A DNA stretch of 56,816 bases from the NCBI GenBank assembly GCA_023251675.1, contig JAHEYJ010000002.1, positions 1-56,816 of the forward strand, given 5' to 3'. The notes beneath the pieces were generated by a model, which did not search any database, was not told where the DNA came from, and was given only the letters and a program-made list of their open reading frames with translations. Position 1 is the first letter of the stretch. Every line of letters begins with the position of its first letter. The position numbers and the translations under genes are program-made. This document shows, one piece after another, positions 3,729 to 47,520 of this stretch. The stretch is from Bacteroidota bacterium (lineage in GTDB: Bacteria > Bacteroidota > Bacteroidia > Palsa-948).

Positions 3729-5069
3729 TTATGAAAAAACATTGTTAAGTTTTTCTCTTGTTTTTCGTTCTCTTTGTTTTTGGAGGGAGCTGATGCCCAG
3801 GGCTTCCAGCATACCGTTTGCTTTCAGCAGGCATTCTTCGTATTCTTTTTCAGGAATTGAATTTGCCGTAATCGCGCTTCCTGCCTGAAAGGATAAGTAT
3901 TTTGAAGCAGCATTATAAAGAATGCTTCGTATGACCACATTAAAGTCAAAATCCCCGTCCGGAGTAATATAGCCGACTGCACCTGAATACATACCTCGTT
4001 TCGTTTTTTCGTAATGCTCGATCAATTCCATTGCTTTTATTTTTGGGGCGCCGGTCATCGAACCCATAGGAAATGAATTTTTCAAAACATCTGAAAAATG
4101 AAATCCGTCTTTTATCTCTCCGCTTACGGTAGAGATCATCTGGTGCCAATGCCGGAAGGTATAAACGCCAAACAATTCATCCACTTTCACGCGTTCACAG
4201 GTTCTGGACAGATCATTTCTGACCAGATCAACGATCATCACGTTTTCGCTTCGTTCTTTGTTGTTTTGAAGGAGACGATCCTTAAGCAACAGATCATCCG
4301 CAATTGTTTTTCCCCTTGGGGCGGTTCCTTTTATCGGCTGTGAGATTATCTTCTTTCCTGATTTTTTCAGAAACCGTTCAGGACTGGCGCAAAGTAAAAA
4401 CGTATCATTCAAACGGAAAAATGCGGAGAAAGGCGCCTGCGATGTTTCATTCAGTTTTATAAAAAGATCAGAGGGATTTATTTCTGCCTGTTCAGAATAA
4501 AACTCCATGCAGTAATTCATTTCATAAATATCCCCGTGTTGAATATGGTCTTTGATCCTGCGAACTGTGCGGATATATTCTTCCGATGAAATTCTTGTTT
4601 TAATTTTATTTTGATACCCGATACCCGATACCCGATACCGGATACCCGATATTTCATGAAATAGGTTTTCAATTTCTTTTTCAGATGAAATCTCCGGAAT
4701 AAAATAAATTTCTACAAGGCCTCCCTTTACAATAAAAACAAATTTCGGGCGAAAAAAATGCATGGATGGAAACCCAATGCCGTCATAATTGCCGGACGAT
4801 AGAACTTCAACTTCATTTTTCAGATCATAAGAAAGAAATCCGAACAGCCAGTCTTGCTTCTCTTCGTGAAACTGCTTAATTGCTTCAAAAGAATTATCCG
4901 TAGAATTTATCGTGCCTATTGTATCAATACCGGCAATCAGGCCCGCAGAACTTCCTTCCCAGCCATTACTTGTGAAGATCGCTGAGCAGGCAATACGGCT
5001 GGAATAAAAAAGAAGGTTTGTAATGAAAGAATCACAATCCGTTACCTTAAAGGAGAGCATTTTTCTCAT
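3729..5069 (-). CDS. pabB: chorismate-binding enzyme, probably aminodeoxychorismate synthase component I
   Basis: 446 aa. Motifs PKIKAMELIEHYE, RGMYSGAVGY and SIPEKEYEE belong to the TrpE/PabB family. PabB versus TrpE was not resolved by eye. Confidence 0.75.
   Translation of the reverse strand: MRKMLSFKVTDCDSFITNLLFYSSRIACSAIFTSNGWEGSSAGLIAGIDTIGTINSTDNSFEAIKQFHEEKQDWLFGFLSYDLKNEVEVLSSGNYDGIGFPSMHFFRPKFVFIVKGGLVEIYFIPEISSEKEIENLFHEISGIRYRVSGIGYQNKIKTRISSEEYIRTVRRIKDHIQHGDIYEMNYCMEFYSEQAEINPSDLFIKLNETSQAPFSAFFRLNDTFLLCASPERFLKKSGKKIISQPIKGTAPRGKTIADDLLLKDRLLQNNKERSENVMIVDLVRNDLSRTCERVKVDELFGVYTFRHWHQMISTVSGEIKDGFHFSDVLKNSFPMGSMTGAPKIKAMELIEHYEKTKRGMYSGAVGYITPDGDFDFNVVIRSILYNAASKYLSFQAGSAITANSIPEKEYEECLLKANGMLEALGISSLQKQRERKTREKLNNVFS
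4614..4648. repeat. heptamer array (atacccg)x5, in frame in the pabB-like gene
   Basis: atacccg atacccg atacccg ataccgg atacccg. On the minus strand it encodes SGIRYRVSGIGY. Confidence 0.9.
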
Positions 5070-13348: not shown

Positions 13349-15313
13349 TTATTTTTCTTCCACCCAATCTCCATTTTCTTTGATGAGGCTGATAAGTTCG
13401 TCCACTGCAGTTTCAGAAGAGATATTTCTTTTCACCACTTCTTTTCCTTTGTACAGCGTGATCTTTCCGACTCCTGTTCCCACGTAACCGTAATCCGCAT
13501 CCGCCATTTCGCCGGGGCCGTTCACGATGCAGCCCATGATCCCGATCTTAACTCCTTTAAGGTGCGAAGTGCGTGAGCGGATCTTTGCGGTGGTTTCCTG
13601 AAGATCAAAAAGTGTTCTGCCGCACGACGGACAGGAAATATATTCTGTTTTAGAAATGCGCGTTCGTGTTGCCTGGAGAATTCCGAAAGCGGTAGAATTG
13701 GTTAATTGCCGGTTTTCAGTTTCCTGTTTATGGTTAGAGATCCAAATCCCATCACCGAAACCATCGAGCAGCAATGCACCAAGATCGGTAGAGGAATACA
13801 GTTGGAGTTTTTCTTCTGATAAATCTTTATAGCTGCGCTTGATGATGACAGGAATTTTTGAATTCAGATGCAGTAGTTCGAAGAACATTTTTCGCTGCTC
13901 TGCCATGCCATGGTCGTTTGATGTTTCAACTATCAGTACAACCGTAGGATCCAAATTGAGAATTGAGAATTGAGAATTGAAAATTGAATCCAGCGTGACA
14001 GCAACAAAATTTAACTCTTTGGACCTTTCTTTCGCAGAAAAATATTCTTCACTATTAAAGAGCGGATAAGTTCGATTTTTATTTTTCAGTTTTGAAAATG
14101 TTTTTGCATTGTAGATCAAACCAAGCGTTCCAGGAATTTGGAAATCAATTTCATTATCACCCAAATAAATATAATCGCATGCCTGGTCGGAAAGATTCCA
14201 TTTGTCAAGCTTTTCGGAATAGTTATACCCGACGGAGAATAATTGAGAAGGTGCAATTTTAGAGGTGAGGCCCGAAAAATCCGCAACCACCCTCGGAACG
14301 TTGTGGCCTCCAATATTGGAAACGGATATAGTTTCTCTTCTCTTATATTCAAAAGGATAATAATGCGGATTTTGACTTTTGACTTTTGACTTTTGACTTT
14401 TGACTTCTGCCTTTTCTCTTTTAGAATATCTCTCCGCAAAATTCTTCGCCACCGGAATTTCAAACTCCGGTTCTTCGGTCAGCGAAACACGGATGGTGTC
14501 GCCTAATCCGTCTTCCAGCAATGTTCCGATCCCCACAGCAGATTTTATTCTTCCGTCTTCGCCATCGCCGGCTTCGGTAACGCCCAGATGCAATGGATAA
14601 TTCCTGTCAGTCTGCAGCATTTTATTCACCAGCAAACGATACGCCTGCACCATCACCTGCGTGTTGCTGGCTTTCATGGAAAGGACGATGTCGAAATATT
14701 TTTTTTCCTCGCAGATACGGAGAAATTCAAAAGCGCTTTCCACCATGCCGAGCGGTGTATCGCCGTAGCGGCTGAGGATCCGATCGGACAACGAACCGTG
14801 ATTCGTTCCGATGCGCATCGCGGTTCCGTTCTCTTTGCAGATCTTTATCAGCGGAAGGAACCGTTCGCGGATCCGTTCCAGTTCTTCATCGTAGGTTTTA
14901 TCGGTGTATTCAATGTGCTCGAATTTTTTCCGGTCGGCATAGTTGCCGGGATTCACCCGTACTTTTTCTACAATACGCGCGGCAAGCTCAGCGGCATTGG
15001 GAGTGAAATGAATATCGGCGCAGAGCGGAGTTTTGTATCCCCGCTTACGCAGTTCCTTTTTTATGTTCTCAAGATTTTTTGCTTCGTTGATGCTCGGCGC
15101 GGTGATACGCACCAATTCGCATCCGGCTTCGATCATGCGGATGCTTTGCTCAACGGTTTTTTTCGTATCCATCGTATCCGTCGTGGTCATGGACTGGATA
15201 CGGATCGGATTGTTGCCGCCAATGCCCAATTCGCCCACTTTAACTTCCCTGGTTTTTAAGCGGGAATAATGAAAAAGCGAATTGCAATAATTGATATTTG
15301 TTTTTATAGACAC
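13349..15313 (-). CDS. ispG: 4-hydroxy-3-methylbut-2-enyl diphosphate synthase, long Bacteroidota form
   Basis: Contains NPIRIQSMTTTDT and ISCPSCGRT...GCIVNGPGE. The start is uncertain: GTG 15313 is preferred over the track TTG at 15394. Confidence 0.9.
   Translation of the reverse strand: MSIKTNINYCNSLFHYSRLKTREVKVGELGIGGNNPIRIQSMTTTDTMDTKKTVEQSIRMIEAGCELVRITAPSINEAKNLENIKKELRKRGYKTPLCADIHFTPNAAELAARIVEKVRVNPGNYADRKKFEHIEYTDKTYDEELERIRERFLPLIKICKENGTAMRIGTNHGSLSDRILSRYGDTPLGMVESAFEFLRICEEKKYFDIVLSMKASNTQVMVQAYRLLVNKMLQTDRNYPLHLGVTEAGDGEDGRIKSAVGIGTLLEDGLGDTIRVSLTEEPEFEIPVAKNFAERYSKREKAEVKSQKSKVKSQNPHYYPFEYKRRETISVSNIGGHNVPRVVADFSGLTSKIAPSQLFSVGYNYSEKLDKWNLSDQACDYIYLGDNEIDFQIPGTLGLIYNAKTFSKLKNKNRTYPLFNSEEYFSAKERSKELNFVAVTLDSIFNSQFSILNLDPTVVLIVETSNDHGMAEQRKMFFELLHLNSKIPVIIKRSYKDLSEEKLQLYSSTDLGALLLDGFGDGIWISNHKQETENRQLTNSTAFGILQATRTRISKTEYISCPSCGRTLFDLQETTAKIRSRTSHLKGVKIGIMGCIVNGPGEMADADYGYVGTGVGKITLYKGKEVVKRNISSETAVDELISLIKENGDWVEEK
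13954..13988. repeat. heptamer array (aattgag)x5, in frame in ispG
   Basis: aattgag x3 followed by aattgaa x2. It encodes FNSQFSILNL on the minus strand. Confidence 0.9.
14370..14404. repeat. heptamer array (ttttgac)x5, in frame in ispG
   Basis: Five perfect ttttgac units. They encode KSQKSKVKSQ on the minus strand. Confidence 0.95.
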
Positions 15314-24513: not shown

Positions 24514-25506
24514 ATGAAAAAAATTTACACGCTTATTATGTTCTTTGCGCTTTTTTTGTTTCACACAGCAAATGCGCAATCAGCACTTTCATTGGGCGCA
24601 CTCACACCCGTTTCTGTCGAGGCGAAAAATAGTAATCCCGGTTTGCTGGCCCTTGATACCATGACGCCTCCCGTATTTACCATGGCTTGCTTCACCGGCG
24701 ATGCGGCCCCGCTCGTATACTATCAAATGGGCGCTGCAGGAATGTTGGTCGGAAATAATTCTTATGGAGAAACAGAAGCCGCGCAACGCTATGCTTTCAC
24801 CGGCAGCGGAACCATTGGTGAAGTGCTGGTTATGTACGGTCATGTAACCGGAACTACCGGAACTACCGCTGCGAAAGTTTATTCCATTACGGCGAAAAAA
24901 CCCGGAACAGTATTAGGCACAAGCGGCACCGTAACCCTTGCAAATATTACGACGACAGGGTATACCAGCTATACATTTTCTCCTACCGTTTCCGTAACTA
25001 CTAATTTTGCTGTTGCCTCTGTTTTTCCTACTACCGCGGCCGCAGGCGATACAGTAGCCGTGGTTTCTACTAAAGAAACCTGCCACTCCGTTGATTCATT
25101 GTCCTACATGAAAATTCCTAACTATGGCGGATGGCTTTTTGCGAATCAATTATTGAATGTTACGATCCCGCGCGACACAAGTCTTGACCTGGTGATTTTA
25201 CCGGTAGTGAATGTGACAACCGGGATTAATGAATATCCAAATAATAATGGATTGACATTGATGGGAACTTTTCCCAACCCTGCACGGGATTTTATTAATC
25301 TCCGCTACCGTTTGGAGGAGCAATCAGCCGTTTCAATAGAAATATTTGATTTAACCGGGCGCATCATTGAAAAGTCATCAGAAAATCTTTCTGCCGGAGA
25401 ACATAACATAAAAGTATCTCTCAAAGATCTTTCAGCCGGCAATTATTATTACACGATCAAAACAGGAAAAACGCAGCTTACCAGTAAATTTGCTGTTATA
25501 AAATAA
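24514..25506 (+). CDS. T9SS type-A CTD secreted protein (cargo 1)
   Basis: Signal peptide ends in ANAQ. The C-terminus has FPNPARDFINLRY...YYYTIKTG...KFAVIK. The N-domain shares KPGTVLGTS with cargo 4. Confidence 0.8.
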   Translation: MKKIYTLIMFFALFLFHTANAQSALSLGALTPVSVEAKNSNPGLLALDTMTPPVFTMACFTGDAAPLVYYQMGAAGMLVGNNSYGETEAAQRYAFTGSGTIGEVLVMYGHVTGTTGTTAAKVYSITAKKPGTVLGTSGTVTLANITTTGYTSYTFSPTVSVTTNFAVASVFPTTAAAGDTVAVVSTKETCHSVDSLSYMKIPNYGGWLFANQLLNVTIPRDTSLDLVILPVVNVTTGINEYPNNNGLTLMGTFPNPARDFINLRYRLEEQSAVSIEIFDLTGRIIEKSSENLSAGEHNIKVSLKDLSAGNYYYTIKTGKTQLTSKFAVIK

Positions 25507-25525
25507 TTTCTTTTTCATTTACATG

Positions 25526-25560
25526 AAAGCCCCTTCAGGAATTCCTCAAGGGGCTTTTTT
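25526..25560 (+). terminator. rho-independent terminator
   Basis: aaagcccctt ... aaggggcttt followed by a T-run. Confidence 0.8.
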
Positions 25561-25715
25561 AATCACTCCTCCTTAAAAAACAGATACGGTATGCAGTGTG
25601 CCGGAACGAATAAGCCTTTAATTATCATAGCGGACAGAAACCCAATTGGGGTTTGCCCTCTGGTTGAAACCATATAATGGAGAAAGTATAATTAAAAGCG
25701 TGCAGGGTTATGCCA

Positions 25716-25746
25716 TTTGCCACTATATAGAAAAATCATATATTTG
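25716..25746 (+). promoter_or_regulatory. consensus promoter TTTG-N19-TATATTTG
   Basis: TTTG at 25716-25719 and TAtaTTTG at 25739-25746. It lies 40 nt upstream of ATG 25786. Confidence 0.65.
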
Positions 25747-25785
25747 CCGACTTTTAAATACTAACATTAATTAAAAAAAACAATC

Positions 25786-26829
25786 ATGAAAAAACTTTAC
25801 ACATCAATTGCGGTTTTAATGCTTGGTGTTGTTGCGATTGCGCAAAACAATAGCAAGTCACTTAGTCCTCAGTTTTCAAATGCACATAGGGTTAGTTCAC
25901 AAACGCCAACCATTGTACATAAAGCTCCATTGAATACACATGCAGTGGGAGACACAGTATTCGTATTTGATGGCCACTACATTTATGATTGGAATAGTAC
26001 GCTTCCGGCAACTTTTAATGTTCAAACGGAAGATATAGATGGTTTAACTATTTATTCTGGACTTCAGGGTTCGTTTGGCGTTACCGGATCCTTTGTCTTT
26101 TTTTACGATACAGTTGCCAACAGTAATCTTACTTATGGTCATCCTGATACTTTATTTTATGGTGCCGCTACTTCATGGTTCACGCCTGCCGGCCAAGCAG
26201 ATAATTGGTTAGAACTTGGACCAATTCATGTTCCAACTGCCGGCGGTACTTTAAAATGGAGACATAGCATACCTGATCCAAGTTATAGAGATGGATATGA
26301 GATTCTTGTAAATACTGCAGGAATTGCCTCAACGAACTTCACTAATGCCGCTATTTTCTCAGTAACAGATAATGATCCTATCACTGCAGGTGATACAGTA
26401 ACTACTCCGCATTATGGATTTGTTCAATATTCTGCAGATGTAAATGCAAATGCCGGACAAGATATTTACGTCGCGGTTCATCACACTGGAAATGATCAGT
26501 TTGTTTTATTGATGACAGACTTTATTCTTCTTGAAGGTTCCGGATCAGGTGTTAACGAAAACAATACTGTTATCACATCTCTTCAAAACATGCCTAACCC
26601 TGCAATCAATAACACAATGATCAGTTATTCGCTGAAAGAAACAGCAAATGTTGACTTTTCATTGTTTGATGTTGCTGGTAAAAAATTATCATCACTTAAT
26701 CAGGGCATACAAACTGCAGGCACTCACCAGTTCAAGCTCGATGTTTCAAATCTTTCTTCTGGAATTTATTTTTATACAATCACCGCGGGTGAGTATAAGA
26801 TAACGAACAAAATGTCTGTTATGAAATAA
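25786..26829 (+). CDS. T9SS type-A CTD secreted protein (cargo 2), possibly a choice-of-anchor-J-like N-domain
   Basis: Signal peptide present. The C-terminus has MPNPAINNTMISY...IYFYTITAGEYKITNKMSVMK. Confidence 0.75.
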   Translation: MKKLYTSIAVLMLGVVAIAQNNSKSLSPQFSNAHRVSSQTPTIVHKAPLNTHAVGDTVFVFDGHYIYDWNSTLPATFNVQTEDIDGLTIYSGLQGSFGVTGSFVFFYDTVANSNLTYGHPDTLFYGAATSWFTPAGQADNWLELGPIHVPTAGGTLKWRHSIPDPSYRDGYEILVNTAGIASTNFTNAAIFSVTDNDPITAGDTVTTPHYGFVQYSADVNANAGQDIYVAVHHTGNDQFVLLMTDFILLEGSGSGVNENNTVITSLQNMPNPAINNTMISYSLKETANVDFSLFDVAGKKLSSLNQGIQTAGTHQFKLDVSNLSSGIYFYTITAGEYKITNKMSVMK

Positions 26830-26849
26830 TCTTATTTTCTTTTTTTCAA

Positions 26850-26886
26850 AAAGCCCTTTCGGAAAATTTCGGAAGGGCTTTTTTGT
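26850..26886 (+). terminator. rho-independent terminator
   Basis: aaagccctttc ... ggaagggcttt followed by a T-run. Confidence 0.8.
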
Positions 26887-26995
26887 TTTTACCCGCCTAA
26901 TTGCACGCAATGAATAGTTAATATTGAGTAATATCTCCGATTTTTCTATTCCTTAAAACATCATGTATGATGTCTTTTATTTCTGCCGCAATGTT

Positions 26996-27003
26996 TATGT
27001 TTG
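26996..27003 (+). promoter_or_regulatory. -7 box TATGTTTG
   Basis: Perfect TAnnTTTG. ATG 27008 lies 5 nt downstream, about where the transcription start is expected. Confidence 0.4.
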
Positions 27004-27007
27004 AAAA

Positions 27008-27049
27008 ATGAAGCAAAAAATTTGTCTCCCCCCCCCCAAAGACTTTTGA
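27008..27049 (+). other. candidate leaderless 13-codon uORF (MKQKICLPPPKDF)
   Basis: ATG AAG CAA AAA ATT TGT CTC CCC CCC CCC AAA GAC TTT TGA. The PPP codons are the C10 tract. Confidence 0.25.
27028..27037. repeat. homopolymeric C10 tract
   Basis: Ten consecutive C in an AT-rich intergenic region, 37 nt upstream of ATG 27074. Confidence 0.95.
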
Positions 27050-27073
27050 CGACACACTAATAGATTATTTACC

Positions 27074-27469
27074 ATGAAGAATATCGCAATCACTAGCGGA
27101 GGTAATAACCTTTTTAAAAAAAGAAAAAGGAAACTTCATTATAAGCCAATGCAAAATCCTGACAACCTGCTTTTAACTCTTGCTGAAAGAATCAGAAACT
27201 TGCGTGTTGGATTTAATTTGTCACAAGAAGAACTTGCAATTAAAATGTATAAAGACAAACAATTCATTCAGCGTATTGAATCGGGCAAGTATAATCCTCA
27301 TTTTATCACGATTGCTGCCATTGCTGATGCGTTGAATGTACCTCTTAGCATACTCGTTAATATAAAAACAACTAATCAAAAAACACTTTATTGCTCAAAT
27401 CACACCTGTAGAAAATTCAATCAGCATTCACATTATTTCAACAATGGTGGTGCAATTGTAAGTTGTTGA
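27074..27469 (+). CDS. XRE-family helix-turn-helix transcriptional regulator
   Basis: HTH_3-like LAERIRNLRVGFNLSQEELAIKMYKDKQFIQRIESGKYNP. Alternative start at ATG 27149. The C-terminal tail is Cys/His-rich (CSNHTCRKFNQHSHY). Confidence 0.75.
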   Translation: MKNIAITSGGNNLFKKRKRKLHYKPMQNPDNLLLTLAERIRNLRVGFNLSQEELAIKMYKDKQFIQRIESGKYNPHFITIAAIADALNVPLSILVNIKTTNQKTLYCSNHTCRKFNQHSHYFNNGGAIVSC

Positions 27470-27611
27470 AGAAAAACACATATCAAATAAATTCCATTTT
27501 CAAACTCAGTGATAGCGAAACTTTTTTTAATAACAAAACAAACAACCATAATCAGGACCGGTTATCCACATGCGCCCAAAAACAAAACATTAATTTCTAA
27601 AATTAATTATC

Positions 27612-28406
27612 ATGAAAAAATTATTTTTTACCCTGACACTGATGTTGGCAATAACATCATTGTCATTTGCATCATTTTCATTTACAATTTATAATAATAA
27701 TCAGGTTGCTTCTTGTACATATACTATTACTGCAATGACGGTTTCTGATAATAGCAGCCCTGTTCCGTGTGTTACTATGTGGGGAGGTCGTGGATGGAAA
27801 CAAGTATTAAATCCCGGTTCCACATATACTTTTACTGCGAACTGCAGCGGTTCTCCGGTTTGGAGTACCATTAGCGTAACTGTAATAGGGAGTTGCAACA
27901 CCTATTATTTTGGTAACTCGAATAATAATAGTGCAGGTATGTGCTGGAATTGTAATAATTCCGATTATTTTACTTGTTGGCAAGTCAATGGGAGTGGTGG
28001 GAGTTATGAAATCCGTCCAGATATTCTTGTAGGAGGCCGTCTTACAAGTGAGAATACAAAAAATAAAAAAGATAATGTAGTAAGTGAAATAGAGAGAACA
28101 ACTCATTTTGCAAGTAAAAATAATGCTGACGAAAATGCAAACAAAATAGTTTCATCTCTTGAAAACACACCAAACCCTACAGCTGATTTTGTTAACCTAA
28201 ACTATGAGCTAACAAACGATGCAGATATTTCGGTATCTATCTTTGATATTTCGGGCAAAGAGGTATTAACAATGAAACAAGGTATTCAGAAAGAAGGGCA
28301 ACACTCTTTGAAATTGGATGTTTCTTCTCTTGCAAGTGGTATGTACTCTTATTCATTTAAAGCAGGGGAAAGCATACTTACGAGAAAATTCATCATTGCA
28401 AAATAA
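27612..28406 (+). CDS. small Cys-rich T9SS type-A CTD secreted protein (cargo 3)
   Basis: Signal peptide present. The N-domain is about 120 aa with 8 Cys and no family was recognised. The C-terminus has TPNPTADFVNLNY...MYSYSFKAG...KFIIAK. Confidence 0.7.
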   Translation: MKKLFFTLTLMLAITSLSFASFSFTIYNNNQVASCTYTITAMTVSDNSSPVPCVTMWGGRGWKQVLNPGSTYTFTANCSGSPVWSTISVTVIGSCNTYYFGNSNNNSAGMCWNCNNSDYFTCWQVNGSGGSYEIRPDILVGGRLTSENTKNKKDNVVSEIERTTHFASKNNADENANKIVSSLENTPNPTADFVNLNYELTNDADISVSIFDISGKEVLTMKQGIQKEGQHSLKLDVSSLASGMYSYSFKAGESILTRKFIIAK

Positions 28407-28425
28407 GACTTTAAATTTCTTTTTA

Positions 28426-28457
28426 AAAACCCTCTCCGTTTTCGGAGGGGGTTTTTG
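28426..28457 (+). terminator. rho-independent terminator of the CCTCTCC/GGAGAGG family
   Basis: aaaaaccctctccg-tttt-cggagggggttttt. Confidence 0.8.
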
Positions 28458-28544
28458 TTTTTATTCTTCCCTTCTGCAAATAAAATAGTTTATATTTGCA
28501 CAACTTTTTAATAAACCAATCAACATTAATTTTTAATCAAAAAA

Positions 28545-29615
28545 ATGAAAAATTTTTACATTTTATTTGTAGGTATTAGTGTTCTTTTTTCTGCAAATGG
28601 TTTTGCCCAGAAAAGAATCGCTAAAGTCAGCGTAACGAAAGTTTCCTCTTTTCAATCCGCTGAAAGAAATCAATCGCCGGTACATCCGATGAACACTAAC
28701 GATACGATCACTGCCCATTGGGATGTGATCTATCCGATGCCATCTGTAGATACGGCAGTCACATACAGTGATTTAGGAGGAGGTTTTGTTGCGGGGCAAG
28801 ATTCCTATCTTGATAAAGCAAAGGCGCAAAAATTCGATGCAACATATGGTGTTACAAGTTCAAATGGTTCTATTACAAACTTACTTATGTGGGTCGGCGC
28901 AAAAATTCAGGCAACAACCCCGGGCAATGCATCATGGGTTCCTACAATTTGGGCGGATAACGCCGGCAAACCGGGAACAGTACTTGGAACTTCTACTGCA
29001 ATTACAGTTGCGCAGATGGATACATCTTCTGCCGCTCTTCAACTGATAGGACCTATCACTGCTTTGAAAGGAGCATATAATTTGAATGCCGCGTTCAGTC
29101 CTGCCGTTGCAATTCCCGTCAATCAAATATTCTGGGCAGGATATACAATTACGTATGACTCCGGAGATTCAGCCGGTTTGGTTTCATCCACCAATGGAAA
29201 CTTCCCTGATGCGGTCACACACACCTTTGAACAATGGAGCGATAATAGCTGGAACTCTTTTAATGATGGAACCACCAATAGCTGGCAATCAGATGTAGCA
29301 CTCGCCGTATATCCCGTAGTTAGTATTGCTACCCATATCGAGGAAAGCAATAGTTCTATTGCATCTGTTAAAAATGTACCCAATCCCGCAAACGATAATA
29401 CGATTATTTATTATTTGCTGAAAGAAAGCTCAAATGTTGAATTGTCATTGTTTGATGTAACAGGGAAAAAATTAATGTCCACCAATGAAGGGCTGCAAGC
29501 CTCAGGAAATCACAAAATCAAACTGGATGTTTCTTCTCTTTTATCCGGGGTTTATTTTTATACAATTTCTGCAGGGGATTTTAAAATGACAAGCAAAATG
29601 AGCGTAGTAAAGTAA
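28545..29615 (+). CDS. T9SS type-A CTD secreted protein (cargo 4)
   Basis: A TATATTTG box lies at 28491-28498. Signal peptide present. The CTD, VPNPANDNTIIYY...VYFYTISAGDFKMTSKMSVVK, is very close to that of cargo 2. Confidence 0.8.
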   Translation: MKNFYILFVGISVLFSANGFAQKRIAKVSVTKVSSFQSAERNQSPVHPMNTNDTITAHWDVIYPMPSVDTAVTYSDLGGGFVAGQDSYLDKAKAQKFDATYGVTSSNGSITNLLMWVGAKIQATTPGNASWVPTIWADNAGKPGTVLGTSTAITVAQMDTSSAALQLIGPITALKGAYNLNAAFSPAVAIPVNQIFWAGYTITYDSGDSAGLVSSTNGNFPDAVTHTFEQWSDNSWNSFNDGTTNSWQSDVALAVYPVVSIATHIEESNSSIASVKNVPNPANDNTIIYYLLKESSNVELSLFDVTGKKLMSTNEGLQASGNHKIKLDVSSLLSGVYFYTISAGDFKMTSKMSVVK

Positions 29616-30024: not shown

Positions 30025-30972
30025 ATGAGAAAATATTTACTTTCAATTGTATTATCCCTTTCTGCACTATTTTCATTTGCTCAGCAGGACCCCCAATTCA
30101 GTCAAAACATGTTTGTTAAACTTCCGATCAATCCGGGTTATGCCGGAACCAGCGGAGCTATTTGTGCAACAGCGATTTATCGTAACCAATGGGTGAGTTT
30201 TCCCGGTTCTCCTAAAACTATATTATTTACAATCGATGCTCCTGTTCAGGCTTTACATGGCGGTGCCGGTCTTACGATTGTAAACGATAAGCTTGGGAAC
30301 TTTAATTTTATGCATGTGCGTGGTGCTTATTCATTTCATAAACCTCTTGGTCAAACCGGTTTGCTGGGTATTGGACTTGAGGCCGGAATACTTCAGGCAT
30401 CTGTTCAGGATAAGTGGTTAGCTCCGGACGGAACAGACGGCACAGCAGACCAGGCGATTCCAAATGAAGCCATAAGTAAATTAACGTATGATATTGGGCT
30501 GGGTGCTTACTACAGAACGCAACAGCTGTATGTTGGTCTTTCCGCTTCTCACTTACCCGGTAAGGCTGAAAAACTAACAGCTACCGAATTTAATTATCAG
30601 GCAGCGAGACATTATTATGTAATTGCTGGCTACGATTTTTTCTTAACAAGTACGTTAACACTTCGCCCATCTGTTCATGTGAAAAGCGATGCGGCTGTTA
30701 CAACATTTGATGGAAATATTAATCTCTTGTGGAACAACATGATCTGGGGCGGTGTTTCTTATCGTTTGCAGGATGCACTTGTTCCGCACATCGGATTTGC
30801 ATGGTCACCTAATCAGAAATCAACGTTGAAGATCGGATATGCATATGATCTTGGGCTGTCAGGATTAAAATCGTATCATAAGAATACGCATGAAATCATG
30901 GTAAATTATTGCATCAAGTTTGTACCTAAGGTAAAAGTCCAAAGCCACATAAACCCAAGATTTTTAAGATAA
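30025..30972 (+). CDS. porP: PorP/SprF family T9SS membrane protein
   Basis: The QQDPQFSQNMFVKLPINPGYAG N-terminal signature is present. Its position immediately upstream of gldK matches the porP-porKLMN arrangement. Confidence 0.85.
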   Translation: MRKYLLSIVLSLSALFSFAQQDPQFSQNMFVKLPINPGYAGTSGAICATAIYRNQWVSFPGSPKTILFTIDAPVQALHGGAGLTIVNDKLGNFNFMHVRGAYSFHKPLGQTGLLGIGLEAGILQASVQDKWLAPDGTDGTADQAIPNEAISKLTYDIGLGAYYRTQQLYVGLSASHLPGKAEKLTATEFNYQAARHYYVIAGYDFFLTSTLTLRPSVHVKSDAAVTTFDGNINLLWNNMIWGGVSYRLQDALVPHIGFAWSPNQKSTLKIGYAYDLGLSGLKSYHKNTHEIMVNYCIKFVPKVKVQSHINPRFLR

Positions 30973-31135
30973 TCTTTTTTATGGAATTTATTTCGGAATT
31001 GTTAATTTATAAACAGTTCATAAAGTAAGTGTCGGTTGTTTGTAACAAATCAAATAATAAAACTGATTAAAATAATGTTTCATCTGTTCCGTTTGTAAAT
31101 AAGAAAACGGCAAGATGATACAAAAATCAATATCT

Positions 31136-32614
31136 ATGAAAAAATTACTTTTCTTCGGATTGTTGGTGTTGCTTCTTAGCGCATGCAACGGGGGCGACCA
31201 CGGGGAACTGGTGGGCGTACAGGGCAGAGACCCATGGTTTCAACCGGATCCGTATGGAACACTTTATTGTCCTATGGGAAGTTTCAACCAGGGTCAAAGT
31301 GATCAGGATATCCCTTATAACTTTACGCAAAAGGCAAGAACGGTTTCTGTGCAAGCCTATTATATGGACCAAACAGAGATCTCAAACAATGAATACCGCC
31401 AGTTTGTTTATTGGGTTCGCGACTCCATTGCACGTGAGTTACTTGGAGCTGTTGATGAAGAAAAATGGAGAAATAAATTAGATCAATTCGGCGTTGAAAG
31501 AGAAGCCGCATATGAAGACAAAGGATATGATTTGATCTGGAATGAAAGACTTGAATATGACAACAAAGACGAAGAAGTACGCAATACATTAAATGATATG
31601 TATCTGCCGGTTAAAGAAAGATTTTATACCAAAAAGGAATTTGATACACGAAAATTTAACTTTCTATATTATCGTATAGATCTTAAAAAAGCGGCAAAGA
31701 AAACAAATCGTTTTCAACACAACTCTACTGCTGATGCCAATGATCCGACAAAAAGTTTTATTGACGGAGTGGGACACTCTGTTGGAGAAGTGGATACAAC
31801 AAAAGAAGGACTTGGTTATTATCTAATTGAAAACAAAGGGCCTAAAAAAGACCGCAGTGTATTTATTGTGAAGGATGTGATCAATGTATATCCTGATACA
31901 CTTGCCTGGGTACACGACTTTACGTATTCATTCAATGAACCAATGACCAATAATTATTTTTGGCATCCTGCATATGATGATTATCCTGTTGTGGGTGTGA
32001 ACTGGAAACAATGCCGCGCATTCTGCGTTTGGCGCACACAATATCTTAACAGTTATTTTACAGGCATCGGGCATTCCATTGTGAATGATTTTCGTTTACC
32101 TACTGAAACAGAATGGGAGTATTCTGCACGTGGCGGACTGGATCTGAGCCCATACCCTTGGGGCGGACCTTACATCAGAAACGCCCGCGGATGTTTCCTT
32201 GGCAATTTCAAACCAATGAGAGGGAACTATCTTCCCGACGGAGGATTTCATACTGTACATATATTTTCCTATTCTCCTAATGAATGGGGATTTTACAACA
32301 TGGCAGGAAATGCTGCGGAGTGGACCAGCAATGCATTTGAAGAGGCAGGGTACGATTTTGAACACGATCTCAACCCCGATTATACATACGAGCCTACAGA
32401 TGATGAAAAATACCAGTCTGTACGTCAGAGAAAAGTAATTCGTGGCGGTTCATGGAAAGATGTGGGGTTTTATCTTCAGAACAGCACAAGATCTTATGAG
32501 TACCAGGATACAGCAAAATGTTATATCGGTTTCCGTTGCGTGATGACGTATCTTGGAAGAGCAAGAGGAGATGATCCTACAGGACAGGAAGGTTCAAGGT
32601 TAGGTGTTAAATAA
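31136..32614 (+). CDS. gldK: gliding motility / T9SS lipoprotein GldK (PorK)
   Basis: Lipobox LLSAC plus an FGE-sulfatase/SUMF1-like domain (RLPTETEWEYSARGG, RGGSWKD). Alternative start at 31115. Confidence 0.9.
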   Translation: MKKLLFFGLLVLLLSACNGGDHGELVGVQGRDPWFQPDPYGTLYCPMGSFNQGQSDQDIPYNFTQKARTVSVQAYYMDQTEISNNEYRQFVYWVRDSIARELLGAVDEEKWRNKLDQFGVEREAAYEDKGYDLIWNERLEYDNKDEEVRNTLNDMYLPVKERFYTKKEFDTRKFNFLYYRIDLKKAAKKTNRFQHNSTADANDPTKSFIDGVGHSVGEVDTTKEGLGYYLIENKGPKKDRSVFIVKDVINVYPDTLAWVHDFTYSFNEPMTNNYFWHPAYDDYPVVGVNWKQCRAFCVWRTQYLNSYFTGIGHSIVNDFRLPTETEWEYSARGGLDLSPYPWGGPYIRNARGCFLGNFKPMRGNYLPDGGFHTVHIFSYSPNEWGFYNMAGNAAEWTSNAFEEAGYDFEHDLNPDYTYEPTDDEKYQSVRQRKVIRGGSWKDVGFYLQNSTRSYEYQDTAKCYIGFRCVMTYLGRARGDDPTGQEGSRLGVK

Positions 32615-32666
32615 AGAATAAGAATAGAACAATTCAATAATAAACAACAATCTAAATCACAATCTT

Positions 32667-33701
32667 ATGAGCAAGTTCGGTGAATTCATGGAATCCAAAT
32701 TTGGAAAAACAATTATGAACTACGTTTATAGCTGGGGAGCTTCTGTCGTTATTGCGGGCGCTCTTTTTAAGATTCTACACTGGCCAGGCGCAAACATCAT
32801 GCTTATCGTAGGAATGGGAACTGAAGCACTGGTGTTTTTTGTTTTTGGTATCGACCCTACCCAGGTACATATGGATCTTGATTGGTCGTTGGTTTACCCT
32901 GAATTAAAATTCGGAGCCGAAGAAGAAAAAGAAAAGAAAGGAGATAAGAAATCGCTTACCGAACAATTGGATAATTTGCTTGAGGAAGCAAAGATCGGCC
33001 CTGAACTTATGGAAAGTTTGGGTTCCGGATTGAAAAACTTAAGCGACAACACTGCAAAAATGAATACCCTTGCCGATGCAAGTGTTGCAACCAATGAGTT
33101 CACTGACAATATGAAAAATGCATCTAAAAAAATCACTACTCTTTCAGATGCATACGATAAAGCATCGGGCTCCATCAGCGGGTCCATCAGTGATCTTGAA
33201 AAGGCATCCAGCAAAACTTCGCAGGCGCTTGAGCTTATTACCAACTCAACGCAGCAGCAGGCCGGTTCTTACAGTGAGCAGCTTCAGAAGGTATCAAAGA
33301 ACCTGGGTTCACTGAACAGCGCATATGAACTTCAGCTTCAGAATTCAAAAGAGAACATCAGTTCTGCTCAAAAAGCAAACGAAGGAATAAACAAACTTGT
33401 TTCTACGCTTGAAGCCTCTATGCAATCTTCTCAGAAAGATGCAGTAGCTTATGGAGAACATCTCAAGAAAACTTCAGGCAATATCCAGTCTTTAAATTCA
33501 GCTTACGAATTGCAGATACAGAATATCAGCAGTGCGAACAAATCGTATCAGAATTTCGAAAAAGCAATGGCAAGCCTTGGAGAAACAGTAGGAGATGCTC
33601 AGAAATTTAAAACACAAATAGCAGCGTTGTCGGAAAACCTGGCATCATTGAACACGGTTTATGGAAACATGTTAACTGCAATGAGCATCACCAGAAAATA
33701 A
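32667..33701 (+). CDS. gldL: gliding motility / T9SS protein GldL (PorL)
   Basis: Two N-terminal TM helices (WGASVVIAGALFKILHWPGANIMLIVGMGTEALVFFVFG) followed by a coiled-coil tail. Confidence 0.9.
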   Translation: MSKFGEFMESKFGKTIMNYVYSWGASVVIAGALFKILHWPGANIMLIVGMGTEALVFFVFGIDPTQVHMDLDWSLVYPELKFGAEEEKEKKGDKKSLTEQLDNLLEEAKIGPELMESLGSGLKNLSDNTAKMNTLADASVATNEFTDNMKNASKKITTLSDAYDKASGSISGSISDLEKASSKTSQALELITNSTQQQAGSYSEQLQKVSKNLGSLNSAYELQLQNSKENISSAQKANEGINKLVSTLEASMQSSQKDAVAYGEHLKKTSGNIQSLNSAYELQIQNISSANKSYQNFEKAMASLGETVGDAQKFKTQIAALSENLASLNTVYGNMLTAMSITRK

Positions 33702-33744
33702 AGAATTATAACCAGATACTTTAACTCTCTAATCTTTATACTAT

Positions 33745-35394
33745 ATGGCAGGAGGAGGCACACCCAGACAGAAAATGATCAACCTGATGTACCTTGTACT
33801 TCTGGCTCTGCTGGCGATGAACGTATCCAAAGAGATTCTTAATTCCTTTGCAATCATCAACAACGGTTTAGTGAAAACCAATGAAAGTTTTGCTGCCAAA
33901 AACGAAATCACCTATAATGCTTTCGACCTGGCTTTGTTGAATGACCCTGTAAAAGTAAGACCTTACTATGACAGGGCGCAAGCGGTTAAAAAACGCTCTC
34001 AGGAAATGTTCGACTACATTGAAAAAGTAAAAGGGGACCTTATTCTCGAGGTTGAAAAAAAAGAAAGTGTTGAAATAGAAGGCCGAAACGGACAGGATAG
34101 CACGGTTAAACTGATATCCAATGTAATGTTCATGGAAGCTAAAGATGATGCCAACACGCCTACGTTGTTTTTTATGGGAGATGCAGACCTGGAAGCAAAA
34201 CCCGGAACAAAAGCATTCGAATTCAAAGAAAAGATAAAAAAATTGAAAGAAGACCTCATGACGTATGTTGATCCAAAGGACAGGGAAAATATCCGTTTGG
34301 GACTCGATATCGGTAATATGTATTCACCGCACGAGGGCAGAGAAATCACATGGGAAACAAATACTTTTTACCATAACCCGGCAATCGCGGTTATTGCTCT
34401 TCTTACCAAAATGCAGAATGACTGCAAGAATTCAGAAGCGGATATCATTAATTCTCTTTACAAAAGAATTGACGTCGCCTCTTTTAAATTTGATACACTT
34501 TCTGCTCGTGTTGTTGCGAATACCAATTACGTCCTGTTAGGAGAAGAATACAGAGCGGAGATATTTATGGCTGCTTTCAGCACCACCTCCAATCCGTCAG
34601 TTTGGCTTGGAAATGTTGACAGCGTGAACAATAAAATTATTGGCGCTATAGATTCTACTTCTATTAAAGTATCAAAAGGAATTGGCGTATATACCATTTC
34701 TCCTTCTGCTGAAGGAACTGTTCAGTACGGAGGTTTAATTCGCATGAAAGATCCTGCTGATCCTACAGTGATTCACTCGTATCCTTTTAAATCAGAATTT
34801 AAAGCAGCGCGGCCCGCCATTGTAGTTTCTCCTGATAAAATGAATGTATTCTATATTGGCCTTGATAATCCCGTTTCCATTTCTGTTCCCGGTATTGCTG
34901 CTGAAGACCTGCAGCCATCCGTTGGCGGTGGAAGCATCAGCGGGTCTCGCGGTAAATATAATGTTCGTGTAAGTAATACAGCAAAAGAAGCGGTTGTAAA
35001 CGTTTCTGCAAGAACAAGAAATGGCACTAAATCCATGGGTCCCGGTGTAAAATTCCGTATTAAACCAGTACCCAATCCTATTGCTACAGTTTATGGAAAA
35101 CGCGGAACAGATGTTATTAAACAGGGAGAGTTACAATTTATTAAAGGAGTTGTACCTATGCTTGACAATTTCGAGTTTGATCTTAAATTTCCTGTAGTTT
35201 CTTTTGACGTTTCGATGAACGTAAACGGTCTGGAAGTCACTGAATCAACAAACGGTCCTTCACTAAGTGAAAAACAACAAGCATTAATTAAAAGGGCAAA
35301 AAGAGGAAACAAAGTTTATATTGAAAAAGTTAGAGTAACTAAGCCCGGAGGTACTATTGTCGATATTGGTAGTGTCAACTTGAAAGTCATATAA
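33745..35394 (+). CDS. gldM: gliding motility / T9SS protein GldM (PorM)
   Basis: PRQKMINLMYLVLLALLAMNVSKEILNSF is the typical GldM N-terminus. Confidence 0.9.
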   Translation: MAGGGTPRQKMINLMYLVLLALLAMNVSKEILNSFAIINNGLVKTNESFAAKNEITYNAFDLALLNDPVKVRPYYDRAQAVKKRSQEMFDYIEKVKGDLILEVEKKESVEIEGRNGQDSTVKLISNVMFMEAKDDANTPTLFFMGDADLEAKPGTKAFEFKEKIKKLKEDLMTYVDPKDRENIRLGLDIGNMYSPHEGREITWETNTFYHNPAIAVIALLTKMQNDCKNSEADIINSLYKRIDVASFKFDTLSARVVANTNYVLLGEEYRAEIFMAAFSTTSNPSVWLGNVDSVNNKIIGAIDSTSIKVSKGIGVYTISPSAEGTVQYGGLIRMKDPADPTVIHSYPFKSEFKAARPAIVVSPDKMNVFYIGLDNPVSISVPGIAAEDLQPSVGGGSISGSRGKYNVRVSNTAKEAVVNVSARTRNGTKSMGPGVKFRIKPVPNPIATVYGKRGTDVIKQGELQFIKGVVPMLDNFEFDLKFPVVSFDVSMNVNGLEVTESTNGPSLSEKQQALIKRAKRGNKVYIEKVRVTKPGGTIVDIGSVNLKVI

Positions 35395-35420
35395 TTAAGA
35401 TATCTATAAAACAAAATACT

Positions 35421-36398
35421 ATGAAAAGATTATCAAAATCAGCATTTCTGTTTAATGCAGTCTTGTTTTTTGTAATCGCGTTCACAGCTGTGTCCATCGC
35501 GCAGGGGCCTCCCAACCAAGGGGGAAACCCTCCTCCCGCTCCTACAAGTTCGGTTACTTCTACTTCACCTTTTGGCGCGCATGGAGGTATTCTTGAACCT
35601 CCGGGAGGTGGAGTTCTTGATGGTGTTTATATTCCCGAACATTTGACGTACAGAAAGCCCCTTCCTTACGTTTATGAACGCGAGGCAGACATCATGTGGT
35701 CAAAGAGAGTGTGGCGGGTAATCGACCTTCGTGAGAAAATGAATCACCCGTTGTATTATCCAACGGATGATTTAGCAAAAAGACCATCCTTATTCAAAGT
35801 ACTTCAGGATGGCATTTATTCTGGTAAAATAAATACTGTATTTACATTCGATCCGTTTACAATGGAGTTTGGGCCCGCATTGACGCTTCCGGAAATTGTT
35901 AAAACGATGACTGAACAGCTGGCGTTGAAAGATTCTATCGGTAATCCTCTAATGGATTCAGTTGGAAATCAGATCATGAAACCGGATACGCTTAGAGCGG
36001 ATAGGATTTCTCAGTATTATGTTAAGGAAGACTGGTTTTTTGAAAAACAGAGGTCTGTGATGGATGTCAGAATTATTTCCATTGCACCGGTCGTGGAGGT
36101 AAATGATCCTGTAAATGGAAAATATACTTACCATCCTCTTTTTTGGCTTTACTATCCTGCAATAAGAGATTATCTTTCACGATTTTACTGTTATAATCCA
36201 TATAACGATGCAGAATGGCGAACCTATGATGAAATATTTCATAAACGCATGTTCAGCAGTTATACTATGATGGAATCAAATGTATACAACAGGACAATTT
36301 CTGCTTACCTGCCGGGGCAAGGAATGGATCAAATGCTCGAATCAGAAAGAATTAAAGATGATATTTTCAAGTTCGAACATGACATGTGGCATTTCTAG
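35421..36398 (+). CDS. gldN: gliding motility / T9SS protein GldN (PorN)
   Basis: It is the fourth gene of the gldKLMN string. Signal peptide present, and WSKRVWRVIDLREKMN and EDWFFEKQRS are GldN-like. Confidence 0.85.
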   Translation: MKRLSKSAFLFNAVLFFVIAFTAVSIAQGPPNQGGNPPPAPTSSVTSTSPFGAHGGILEPPGGGVLDGVYIPEHLTYRKPLPYVYEREADIMWSKRVWRVIDLREKMNHPLYYPTDDLAKRPSLFKVLQDGIYSGKINTVFTFDPFTMEFGPALTLPEIVKTMTEQLALKDSIGNPLMDSVGNQIMKPDTLRADRISQYYVKEDWFFEKQRSVMDVRIISIAPVVEVNDPVNGKYTYHPLFWLYYPAIRDYLSRFYCYNPYNDAEWRTYDEIFHKRMFSSYTMMESNVYNRTISAYLPGQGMDQMLESERIKDDIFKFEHDMWHF

Positions 36399-46797: not shown

Positions 46798-47520
46798 CTA
46801 CAACCCTTCTCCTTTGGGGGAGATAGAGGGGGTGAAAAAGTCTTTCAGGTAGAACGGCTCGAAGTAGGCCAGGTTCTCAAATTTTTTCTCATCAAAATAT
46901 TTTTCTGCCAATGGAATCATGAACCGGGCCGAAGGATTTATGCCGTCGATAAAAATTGCATTCGTACTTTTTATTTGTGATTTGCATTTTTCAGCACCAT
47001 CTCCGAAGAAATAGAGTGGAGATGTGAAATGTGAGATGTGAGATTTATTTGAAAGAACTTTTGAAATAAAATTTTCATCCACGATCTCTGCTGAAGCAGG
47101 ACAAATCTCTTTTATATTCTCATCGTACAAAGCACAGTAGACTTCCATTCTTCTGGCATCGATCATCGGACAAAACAGACTTGAGACTTGAGACTTGAGG
47201 CTTGAGACTTGCCCTGCCGCCATTGCTTCCAAAGAACTAATTCCGATCAATGGTTTATCCAATGCATAACACAATCCTTTTGCCGTTGAAACGCCGATCC
47301 GTAATCCCGTAAATGAGCCGGGACCTTTGCTGACAGCAACCGCATCAATATCTTTTAAATGAATTCTTGCCTGACGGCATACTTCTTCAATATACCGCGT
47401 GAGATTTTCAGCGTGGGAGTGTTTTGCGTCGATGGATTCTTTTAATGCGATCAACTTTCCATTCTGCCCGAGTGCAACAGAGCACGATTTTGTGGAGGTT
47501 TCTAAACAGAGAATTGTCAT
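46798..47520 (-). CDS. tsaB: tRNA threonylcarbamoyladenosine biosynthesis protein TsaB
   Basis: MTILCLETSTKSCSVALGQNG and GPGSFTGLRIGVSTAKGL are present. The C-terminal tail SPKGEGL is encoded by a CCTTCTCC/GGGGAGA-type element. Confidence 0.88.
   Translation of the reverse strand: MTILCLETSTKSCSVALGQNGKLIALKESIDAKHSHAENLTRYIEEVCRQARIHLKDIDAVAVSKGPGSFTGLRIGVSTAKGLCYALDKPLIGISSLEAMAAGQVSSLKSQVSSLFCPMIDARRMEVYCALYDENIKEICPASAEIVDENFISKVLSNKSHISHFTSPLYFFGDGAEKCKSQIKSTNAIFIDGINPSARFMIPLAEKYFDEKKFENLAYFEPFYLKDFFTPSISPKGEGL
47015..47042. repeat. heptamer array (atgtgag-like), in frame in tsaB
   Basis: agtggag atgtgaa atgtgag atgtgag. It encodes SHISHFTSP on the minus strand. Confidence 0.7.
47179..47213. 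repeat. heptamer array (acttgag)x5, in frame in tsaB
   Basis: acttgag x3, then gcttgag and acttgcc. It encodes SSLKSQVSSL on the minus strand. Confidence 0.85.

Follow-up and report, generated by a model that had tools for sequence, protein, structure and literature searches.

A ten-cytosine tract ahead of a regulator and a secreted-cargo gene in a groundwater Bacteroidota genome as a candidate length switch

Which role, if any, does a run of ten cytosines play at the head of a regulator gene in otherwise AT-rich DNA? The question was raised by a 56,816-bp stretch of an uncultured Bacteroidota genome that was assembled out of a groundwater metagenome (the whole stretch is called the window below). 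The tract (C10, 27028-27037) precedes a gene for an XRE-family helix-turn-helix (HTH) regulator, which is followed by cargo264, a gene for a cargo protein of the type IX secretion system (T9SS). An earlier note on this DNA had proposed that the tract serves as a slipped-strand switch, as a polyproline stalling sensor dependent on elongation factor P (EF-P), or as both. From the analysis reported here, we consider the chances about even that the C10 tract functions as a length switch in one way or another, with a route through an upstream open reading frame (uORF) and translational coupling making up roughly half of that probability.

The C10 tract and a variable poly-G tract in a related species

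We propose the C10 homopolymer as a slippage-prone contingency tract. No other C or G run in the window reaches 7 nt, the next longest being 6 nt. C runs of at least 10 nt would be expected 0.006 times in the window, which puts the tract well outside chance, and the G+C content of the spacer is 30% when the tract is left out. The location of the run in an AT-rich spacer, as described in the earlier note, was borne out, and with ten bases the run exceeds the length from which frequent slippage is expected of G/C tracts (about 7-9 or more). It stands 37 nt upstream of the XRE ATG, with positions 27038-27073 between them.

A homopolymer of variable length was found on the same gene family in a related species, which is represented by a metagenome-assembled genome (MAG) contig from GTDB (CAZCJN010000013, here L003) and a JGI contig (L095) and which is 80% identical to the window in PorP and 83% identical in GcvP. 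The cargo264 ortholog in L003 and L095 carries a poly-G tract inside its coding sequence (CDS), after codon K59, where the window reads TGGGGAGGTCGTGGATGG. The alleles of this tract were read from the Logan contigs of 12 runs, which belong to 9 studies, and from L003 and L095, for a total of 14 assemblies. G11 was present in runs X4, X5, X7 and X8 and in the L003 MAG, G10 in run X13, G9 in run X14, and G8 in runs X9, X10, X15, X22 and X23 and in L095. The assembly graph of run X6 splits at the tract into three branches, with G8 at a depth of 11.9, G9 at 3.8 and G11 at 3.7. Runs of the same study also differed from each other (X4 with G11 versus X10 with G8; X14 with G9 versus X15 with G8), and in every case there were zero differences other than tract length over the 451 nt around it. 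A tract of polymorphic length between identical flanks was clearly encountered in the related species, and it was not encountered for the tract in the window.

The length of the poly-G tract determines whether the cargo gene is read through. Only G9 and G12 give the full-length protein of 269/270 amino acids (aa), while G8 and G11 lead to a stop after 66/67 aa and G10 to a stop after 84 aa. Among the public gene calls, the truncated C-terminal fragment was recorded on 63 contigs and the G8 N-terminal fragment on 33, compared to a single contig with the G11 fragment and 3 with the intact G9 form. Judged from these sequences, the cargo ortholog of the related species is a textbook slipped-strand contingency gene that is mostly OFF in nature and whose frame downstream of the tract is intact. 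Because its G tract varies while the flanks are identical, the sequence record indicates that this lineage uses G/C homopolymers as contingency loci on the cargo264 family. In 1.29 Mb of related loci, G/C runs of at least 10 nt occurred only as the window type, in L003 and in L060, and we estimate a probability of about 0.002 that two independent tracts would fall on the same small gene family by chance. It was also noted that the commonest alleles, G8 and G11, share one OFF frame, and that G9 (full-length) and G10 are rare (L003:8985-9796, P0156-P0162); this predominance of G8 and G11 may go back to two clonal lineages or to selection on the frame.

The regulator-cargo unit and its predicted leader

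The window carries, in order, gcvP, cargo330, cargo347, the XRE gene, cargo264, cargo356, porP/sprF, gldK, gldL, gldM and gldN, where the T9SS cargo genes (cargo330, cargo347, cargo264 and cargo356) are named by their length in amino acids. The T9SS core genes porP/sprF and gldK-L-M-N lie 1.6 kb downstream of cargo264. An intrinsic terminator of the upstream cargo347 gene (26848-26883, forward strand; a 16-pair stem, then a T run) forms the 5' boundary of the XRE-cargo264 transcription unit, and another (28424-28457, forward strand; a 15-pair stem, then a T run) closes it. Perfect -7 boxes were located 39 nt before the cargo347 ATG and 46 nt before the cargo356 ATG; cargo264, in contrast to these two neighbours, is without a perfect -7 box. 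Because strong terminators bracket the pair, none was found between XRE and cargo264, and cargo264 lacks such a box, the simplest reading is that the two genes form a single transcription unit headed by the C tract, and cargo264 is probably co-transcribed with XRE. The earlier note had suggested that the tract might reach as far as the Cys-rich cargo gene, and this gained support from the same terminator arrangement.

The cargo264 protein (27612-28406, forward strand; 264 aa) possesses a signal peptide and a C-terminal Por_Secre_tail sorting domain (PF18962, 5.1e-14, residues 187-262), and the T9SS core is present in the genome; these are the features that define a T9SS cargo. Its mid-region is an all-beta domain of approximately 150 aa with 7 Cys, for which the beta model is of low confidence; the AlphaFold model, built from a 4-sequence alignment, reached a mean predicted local distance difference test (pLDDT) score of 50. 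The family is very small, and it adjoins porP-gldKLMN wherever the contig is long enough.

The regulator (27074-27469, forward strand; 131 aa) was identified by its match to HTH_3 (PF01381; E-value 1.5e-11, 44.6 bits compared to a gathering cut-off of 23, residues 40-93). Its N-terminal arm, KKRKRKL, is basic, and its C-terminus bears a conserved motif, YCxNHxCxKFNQH, which suggests a metal- or ligand-binding tail. A word-indexed search for homologs of the regulator returned only the protein itself, and tblastn against 80 related loci gave no match; an exhaustive HMMER search recovered one true homolog, P0007 (132 aa; 56% identity by phmmer and 54% by BLASTP, aligned over residues 1-130). Gene callers put the XRE start at 27149 (106 aa, P0001). 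The start at 27074 on which the earlier note had relied was confirmed over this called start, because P0007 aligns from residue 1; the alignment takes in the basic KRKRKL arm upstream of Met26, and the residue of P0007 that corresponds to position 26 is not a Met. The start codon has an A at -3, in a context (ATTATTTACCATGAAGAA) that resembles that of cargo264 (ATTAATTATCATGAAAAA).

Additional features, repetitive or regulatory, were observed around the homolog and at the corresponding place in other members of the cargo family. The P0007 contigs (L096/L097) are at most 900 nt long and carry a different downstream gene; in L096 it encodes a small membrane protein and is no relative of cargo264. 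The P0007/P0155 gene in L096 follows a 42-bp (2 x 21) tandem array (L096:87-245) that ends 53 bp before its ATG, and its CDS opens with ATG and then A9 (L096:299-310). At L090:847-1221, an uncalled ORF of 124 aa with a marginal HTH_3 match (E-value 1e-4, 22.7 bits compared to the cut-off of 23) lies directly upstream of a cargo264-family gene, and a small HTH gene ahead of this family may be a recurring arrangement. No homology was detectable between the window XRE protein and either this HTH-like ORF or a 245-aa gene in L083.

We then consider the 5' end of the unit. Between the terminator and the XRE start, the sole perfect TAnnTTTG is a Bacteroidota -7 box, TATGTTTG, at 26996-27003 on the forward strand, and 4 nt separate it from the A of an ATG at 27008-27010. 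This ATG opens a 13-codon mini-ORF (27008-27049, forward strand) that contains the tract, encodes MKQKICLPPPKDF and would be leaderless if the box is used. Its codons are ATG AAG CAA AAA ATT TGT CTC CCC CCC CCC AAA GAC TTT TGA, with three prolines (PPP) at codons 8-10; any C run of at least 9 nt encodes PPP in every frame, so the PPP is no independent observation. The coordinates of the box and of the ATG just downstream had been given correctly in the earlier note, and a script reproduced its hand translation of the mini-ORF with PPP.

In the published consensus, the -7 box comprises T-12, A-11, T-8, T-7, T-6 and G-5, with 4-5 nt to the transcription start (PMC6847099). The spacing from box to ATG at the mini-ORF fits this rule, and since G-5 corresponds to 27003, its application places the predicted transcription start at 27008/27009, on the A of the mini-ORF ATG. 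Among the related loci, ORFs of at least 80 aa start 4 nt past a box in 9 cases and 5 nt past it in 10, compared to 4 and 2 cases at 6 and 7 nt. The same leaderless geometry was seen in the window at the gene for a chorismate-binding enzyme (3729-5069, reverse strand), which reads TACATTTG-CCTC-ATG. Because this geometry recurs before long ORFs in the window and in the related loci, leaderless initiation in this clade is credible, and a leaderless mini-ORF is plausible.

Other elements of the spacer were also assessed. The RNA fold of the leader (27008-27160) was no better than that of shuffled sequences (z = -0.16 for the minimum free energy), with the C tract unpaired, and an attenuator or RNA switch in the leader was rejected on this score. 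A perfect 16-bp palindrome, ACATCATGTATGATGT (26958-26973), lies at about -50 to -35 from the predicted transcription start and is a candidate operator for the XRE protein. It is unique in the window, with no further copies near the cargo264 gene, and by our estimate a palindrome of such size is not statistically remarkable within a 190-nt spacer. ORFs of 32 and 45 aa on the minus strand over the tract, antisense to the XRE start, were judged spurious.

The tract alleles were rebuilt by script, which reproduced the earlier note's account of the C9 and C11 forms. With C10, C7 or C13, the mini-ORF stops 24 nt before the XRE ATG. With C11 or C8 it stops 13 nt before it, at a TAA (27058-27060) in the case of C11. 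With C9 or C12 the ORF extends to 22 or 23 codons, and its TGA overlaps the XRE ATG (ATGA, 27074-27077, in the 22-codon C9 form). It was noted that at C10 the mini-ORF and the XRE ORF share a frame and are parted only by the TGA at 27047-27049 (MKQKICLPPPKDF*RHTNRLFTMKN...). An N-terminal fusion of the mini-ORF to XRE was rejected, as a stop falls before or at the XRE ATG whatever the tract length.

From this geometry, we propose a mechanism in which replication slippage would alter the tract in single-base steps, and tract length would set the output of the XRE-cargo264 unit. The most likely route would be translational: transcription would start at A27008, so that the mRNA begins with the mini-ORF AUG, and tract length would set the frame of the mini-ORF and hence the place where its ribosomes terminate. 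At C10 or C13 this would be 24 nt before the XRE AUG, at C11 or C8 13 nt before it, and at C9 or C12 on the AUG itself (AUGA). Termination-reinitiation coupling would then grade the translation of XRE in a phylum without Shine-Dalgarno sequences, where the AUGA overlap of C9 and C12 is the arrangement expected to couple best, and cargo264 would also be graded, through the XRE protein or through polarity. Length variation of the window tract, the transcription start, translation of the mini-ORF and any effect on expression are inferred, and the candidate uORF/ATGA-coupling route is geometrically sound. In its complete form, with a homopolymer in a leaderless 5'-terminal mini-ORF acting as a translational phase switch that toggles XRE reinitiation coupling and through it a T9SS-secreted protein, the proposal is possible but doubtful.

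Evidence against the switch and competing explanations

Several observations weigh against the translational switch. No length variation of the window tract was seen in four assemblies from two samples, examined as contigs only, at depths of 12.6 and 3.8: the window, Logan contig L001, ENA contig L002 and a contig of run X2 are identical in carrying C10. The assembly graph of run X1 is unbranched at the tract at a depth of 12.6, and the tract of the related species was branched in run X6 at a similar depth. The organism is present in only two public DNA runs (one of them the Logan sample SRR14366756), both of one study, as contigs, which drop rare variants. When JGI metagenome contigs were scanned for the exact window flanks with C6 to C20 between them, there were 0 matches. 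This negative evidence on length variation in the window is weak. The earlier note had called for a check of tract-length heterogeneity, which was observed in the related species (G8 to G11) and not in the window contigs, and the slipped-strand reading of the window tract has strong, if indirect, support through the variable poly-G in the related species' cargo ortholog.

Further points on the same side concern the promoter, the start codon and expression. Perfect TAnnTTTG boxes number 31 on the plus strand and 19 on the minus strand of the window, where about 25 per strand are expected, and the TATGTTTG box carries a G at -9, the frequency of which is 'virtually zero' among Flavobacterium johnsoniae promoters (PMC6847099). 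The XRE start, which is unstructured and has A at -3, may initiate alone, and this would make the coupling marginal. Upstream of the sole XRE homolog (L096/L097), there is no uORF, no PPP and no C tract. Neither contigs nor word search gave any RNA over XRE or cargo264 in the study's three metatranscriptomes. In run X3, the sole metatranscriptome in which the organism was detected, RNA contigs cover cargo347, porP and gldK/L/M/N, with the last contig on cargo347 ending at 26722. The silence of XRE-cargo264 at C10 fits a low or OFF state but does not discriminate, because the tract-free cargo330 and cargo356 genes are equally absent from the X3 RNA contigs. It was observed in this run that RNA covers only one of the four clustered cargo genes (cargo347, 25786-26829; regions 24514-29615 and 30025-36398).

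If the tract does not switch, it could be static or neutral in this population, a mutational accident or relic with no regulation and no appreciable switching, which is quite possible, if on the improbable side. The presence of C10 in all four assemblies from both samples and the unbranched graph agree with such a relic, as does the want of anything equivalent upstream of the sole XRE homolog; moreover, the mini-ORF is so short as to be trivial, and by our estimate chance alone would put a perfect -7 box into an AT-rich spacer of 190 nt with a probability of about 0.2. A static tract is harder to reconcile with the expectation of 0.006 such runs per window in DNA of 30% G+C and with the lack of 7-9 nt runs elsewhere, and the tract stands at the head of an operon for which the cargo ortholog of the related species is phase-variable by way of a G tract. 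In the bacteria that have been studied, slipped-strand mispairing makes G/C runs of at least 9 nt highly mutable regardless of function, which also argues against a tract that does not change. An assembly or sequencing artefact, for example poly-G/C from two-colour chemistry, is scarcely credible: poly-G read tails are a known product of two-colour Illumina chemistry, but the tract is internal to unique sequence, the same assembly came from three assemblers or pipelines and 2 samples, and contig record 1 of run X1 (7,830 nt, depth 12.6) crosses the tract with 0 mismatches and 0 gaps.

In the main alternative as to mechanism, a length switch would act on transcription. A weaker promoter on the forward strand (27021-27048), with a -33-like TTTG (27021-27024), 16 nt that include C10, and a -7-like GACTTTTG (27041-27048), would start transcription near 27053, and the elements of this promoter would be spaced and phased according to tract length. 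TTTG and GACTTTTG both flank the tract, the leader would be about 20 nt long, as is typical of the phylum (leaders are mostly 23 nt in B. thetaiotaomicron and average 33 nt in F. johnsoniae), and the L096 XRE homolog, too, has nothing better than an imperfect box (TAACTTTT) 15 nt ahead of its ATG. Promoter-spacer tracts are, as far as is known, the commonest mechanism among non-coding simple sequence repeats (SSRs), and the comparative evidence for G/C tract use in the lineage applies equally to this promoter. We consider it unlikely all the same, as T-12, which belongs to the six nearly invariant positions, is missing from GACTTTTG, the C10 spacer measures 16 nt compared to the approximately 20 nt implied by the -33/-7 numbering, and the C run falls where AT-rich motifs are expected at about -18, with -33 elements barely detectable in Flavobacteria. 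Its flank score is also below that of the upstream box, by a scoring of the two candidate -7 boxes that was uninformative, the position weight matrix being nearly without information outside the core. Sequence alone cannot decide between the uORF route and the promoter-spacer route. The tract could finally act with no change of length, if PPP stalled the mini-ORF ribosomes at low EF-P activity and so modulated XRE translation. PPP is indeed encoded at codons 8-10, and a leaderless mRNA would make translation of the mini-ORF plausible, but this stalling sensor, the other proposal of the earlier note, went unsupported and is very improbable. The motif comes automatically with the C run, and a stalled ribosome would cover the mRNA to about 27046 by our estimate, well short of the XRE AUG at 27074, from which the stall site is about 40 nt away. 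Nor is there a significant alternative structure in the leader through which a stall could be relayed; the peptide lacks conservation, and no uORF precedes the L096 homolog.

Known systems, other repeats and significance

The proposed length switch was compared to known phase-variable systems. Intragenic homopolymer contingency genes are described from Neisseria, Haemophilus and Campylobacter, including the poly-G/C tracts of meningococcal hmbR and nalP/mspA (PMC3786947, PMC3723659, PMC3025981). The poly-G tract of the related species resembles this class in its 8-12 nt of G/C near the 5' end of a gene for a surface or secreted protein, in its 1-nt steps and mixed alleles, and in having one full-length and two truncating frames. 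The window tract differs in lying upstream of the regulated protein genes rather than inside them, and the setting differs as well: here the carriers are free-living uncultured Bacteroidota of groundwater and activated sludge and not host-adapted pathogens, and the target is a T9SS substrate.

The window tract itself resembles the non-coding class, where its nearest examples are the promoter-spacer tracts and the tract of Moraxella catarrhalis uspA1. The latter is similar as a G(n) tract of about 9-12 nt between the promoter region and the start codon, which grades expression rather than frameshifting the protein (PMC7302503). The uspA1 tract is read out at the mRNA level with no mini-ORF, and its length dependence was measured, whereas that of the window tract is predicted. 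Reportedly, Lafontaine et al. in 2001 placed the uspA1 tract downstream of the transcription start, and the window tract would also be downstream of the start if the -7 box at 26996 is used. The Bordetella fim poly-C, Neisseria porA/opc and Treponema pallidum tpr poly-G tracts are classic cases of the geometry of the competing promoter, in which homopolymer length alters the layout of the promoter, and the Helicobacter pylori sabA T-tract rheostat (PMC4081817) and the distal repeats of nadA (PMC2791445) belong with them as ON/OFF or rheostat systems. These promoters have sigma-70 -35/-10 elements, whereas the competing promoter in the window would have sigma-ABfr -33/-7 elements with a defective -7 box. 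We know of no case of a promoter-spacer tract in this phylum.

Phase-variable regulators, such as the mod phasevarions, Bordetella bvgS with its poly-C and Campylobacter flgR/flgS, are alike in that an SSR governs a regulator, so that several genes can be switched by one tract. However, their tract lies inside the regulator CDS, while that of the window is upstream, and the likely regulon would be the adjacent cargo gene. Stalling leader peptides and EF-P-dependent polyproline regulation (ErmCL, SecM, CadC) likewise involve a short upstream ORF with a potential stall motif (here PPP), but in the window the peptide is not a conserved one, alternative RNA structure is wanting, and the stall site is not linked by geometry to the downstream start. 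Within the phylum, the invertible promoters and shufflons of Bacteroides also provide stochastic ON/OFF control of surface or secreted molecules, by site-specific DNA inversion and not by slippage (PMC10939037, PMC12068327). The literature covered, which was partial, contained no account of phase variation by homopolymers in Bacteroidota or in a T9SS cargo; its Bacteroides papers dealt with DNA inversions. Relative to known non-coding tracts, the window combines a sigma-ABfr promoter context, a predicted leaderless mini-ORF, and XRE together with a T9SS substrate as the target. The kind of element proposed is a known one, an SSR contingency locus, and what is unusual is its placement and its ecological and phylogenetic setting.

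Additional repeats were noted in the window and in related genomes. Housekeeping genes of the window contain five heptanucleotide tandem arrays within their CDSs, all in frame as assembled, where one unit gained or lost would shift the frame. The arrays are at 4613-4651 (GATACCC x5.6), 13954-13987 (AATTGAG x4.9), 14370-14422 (TTTTGAC x6.6), 47019-47044 (GAGATGT x3.7) and 47177-47211 (AGACTTG x5), and the genes concerned are that of the chorismate-binding enzyme, an ispG-like ORF (13349-15190, reverse strand) and a tsaB-like ORF (46798-47520, reverse strand). In a species with a 56%-identical cargo264 homolog, the cargo gene is preceded by a 245-aa gene that matches no Pfam family, and 55 bp before this gene stands a 42-bp (2 x 21) tandem array (L083:4946-5099, also in L084-L088). 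Its copy number differs between samples, as seen because gene coordinates shift by multiples of 42 bp across L083-L088. The more distant Bacteroidota MAG JADKFV01 (L060) has a G16 tract at 250-265, which encodes GGGGG before a signal-peptide-like hydrophobic stretch of an ORF, and a G9 tract directly after the lipobox Cys of gldK (L060:11103-11111); these G tracts may be further contingency tracts that touch T9SS itself.

Phase variation in Bacteroidota has been described almost wholly as DNA inversion, and textbooks know homopolymer contingency loci from host-adapted pathogens. The variable alleles examined here show that uncultured activated-sludge Bacteroidota switch a T9SS-secreted protein through a poly-G tract, and the groundwater relative suggests that a poly-C tract has been placed before a regulator-cargo operon of the same protein family. 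This points to strong fluctuating selection on a small secreted family beside the T9SS core genes, the source of which might be phage, predators or surface attachment, although this is speculation. The locus also offers a concrete example on which to test how translation coupling could serve switching in a phylum without Shine-Dalgarno sequences. If the translational phase switch is true, free-living environmental Bacteroidota would run T9SS-cargo contingency loci by at least two routes.

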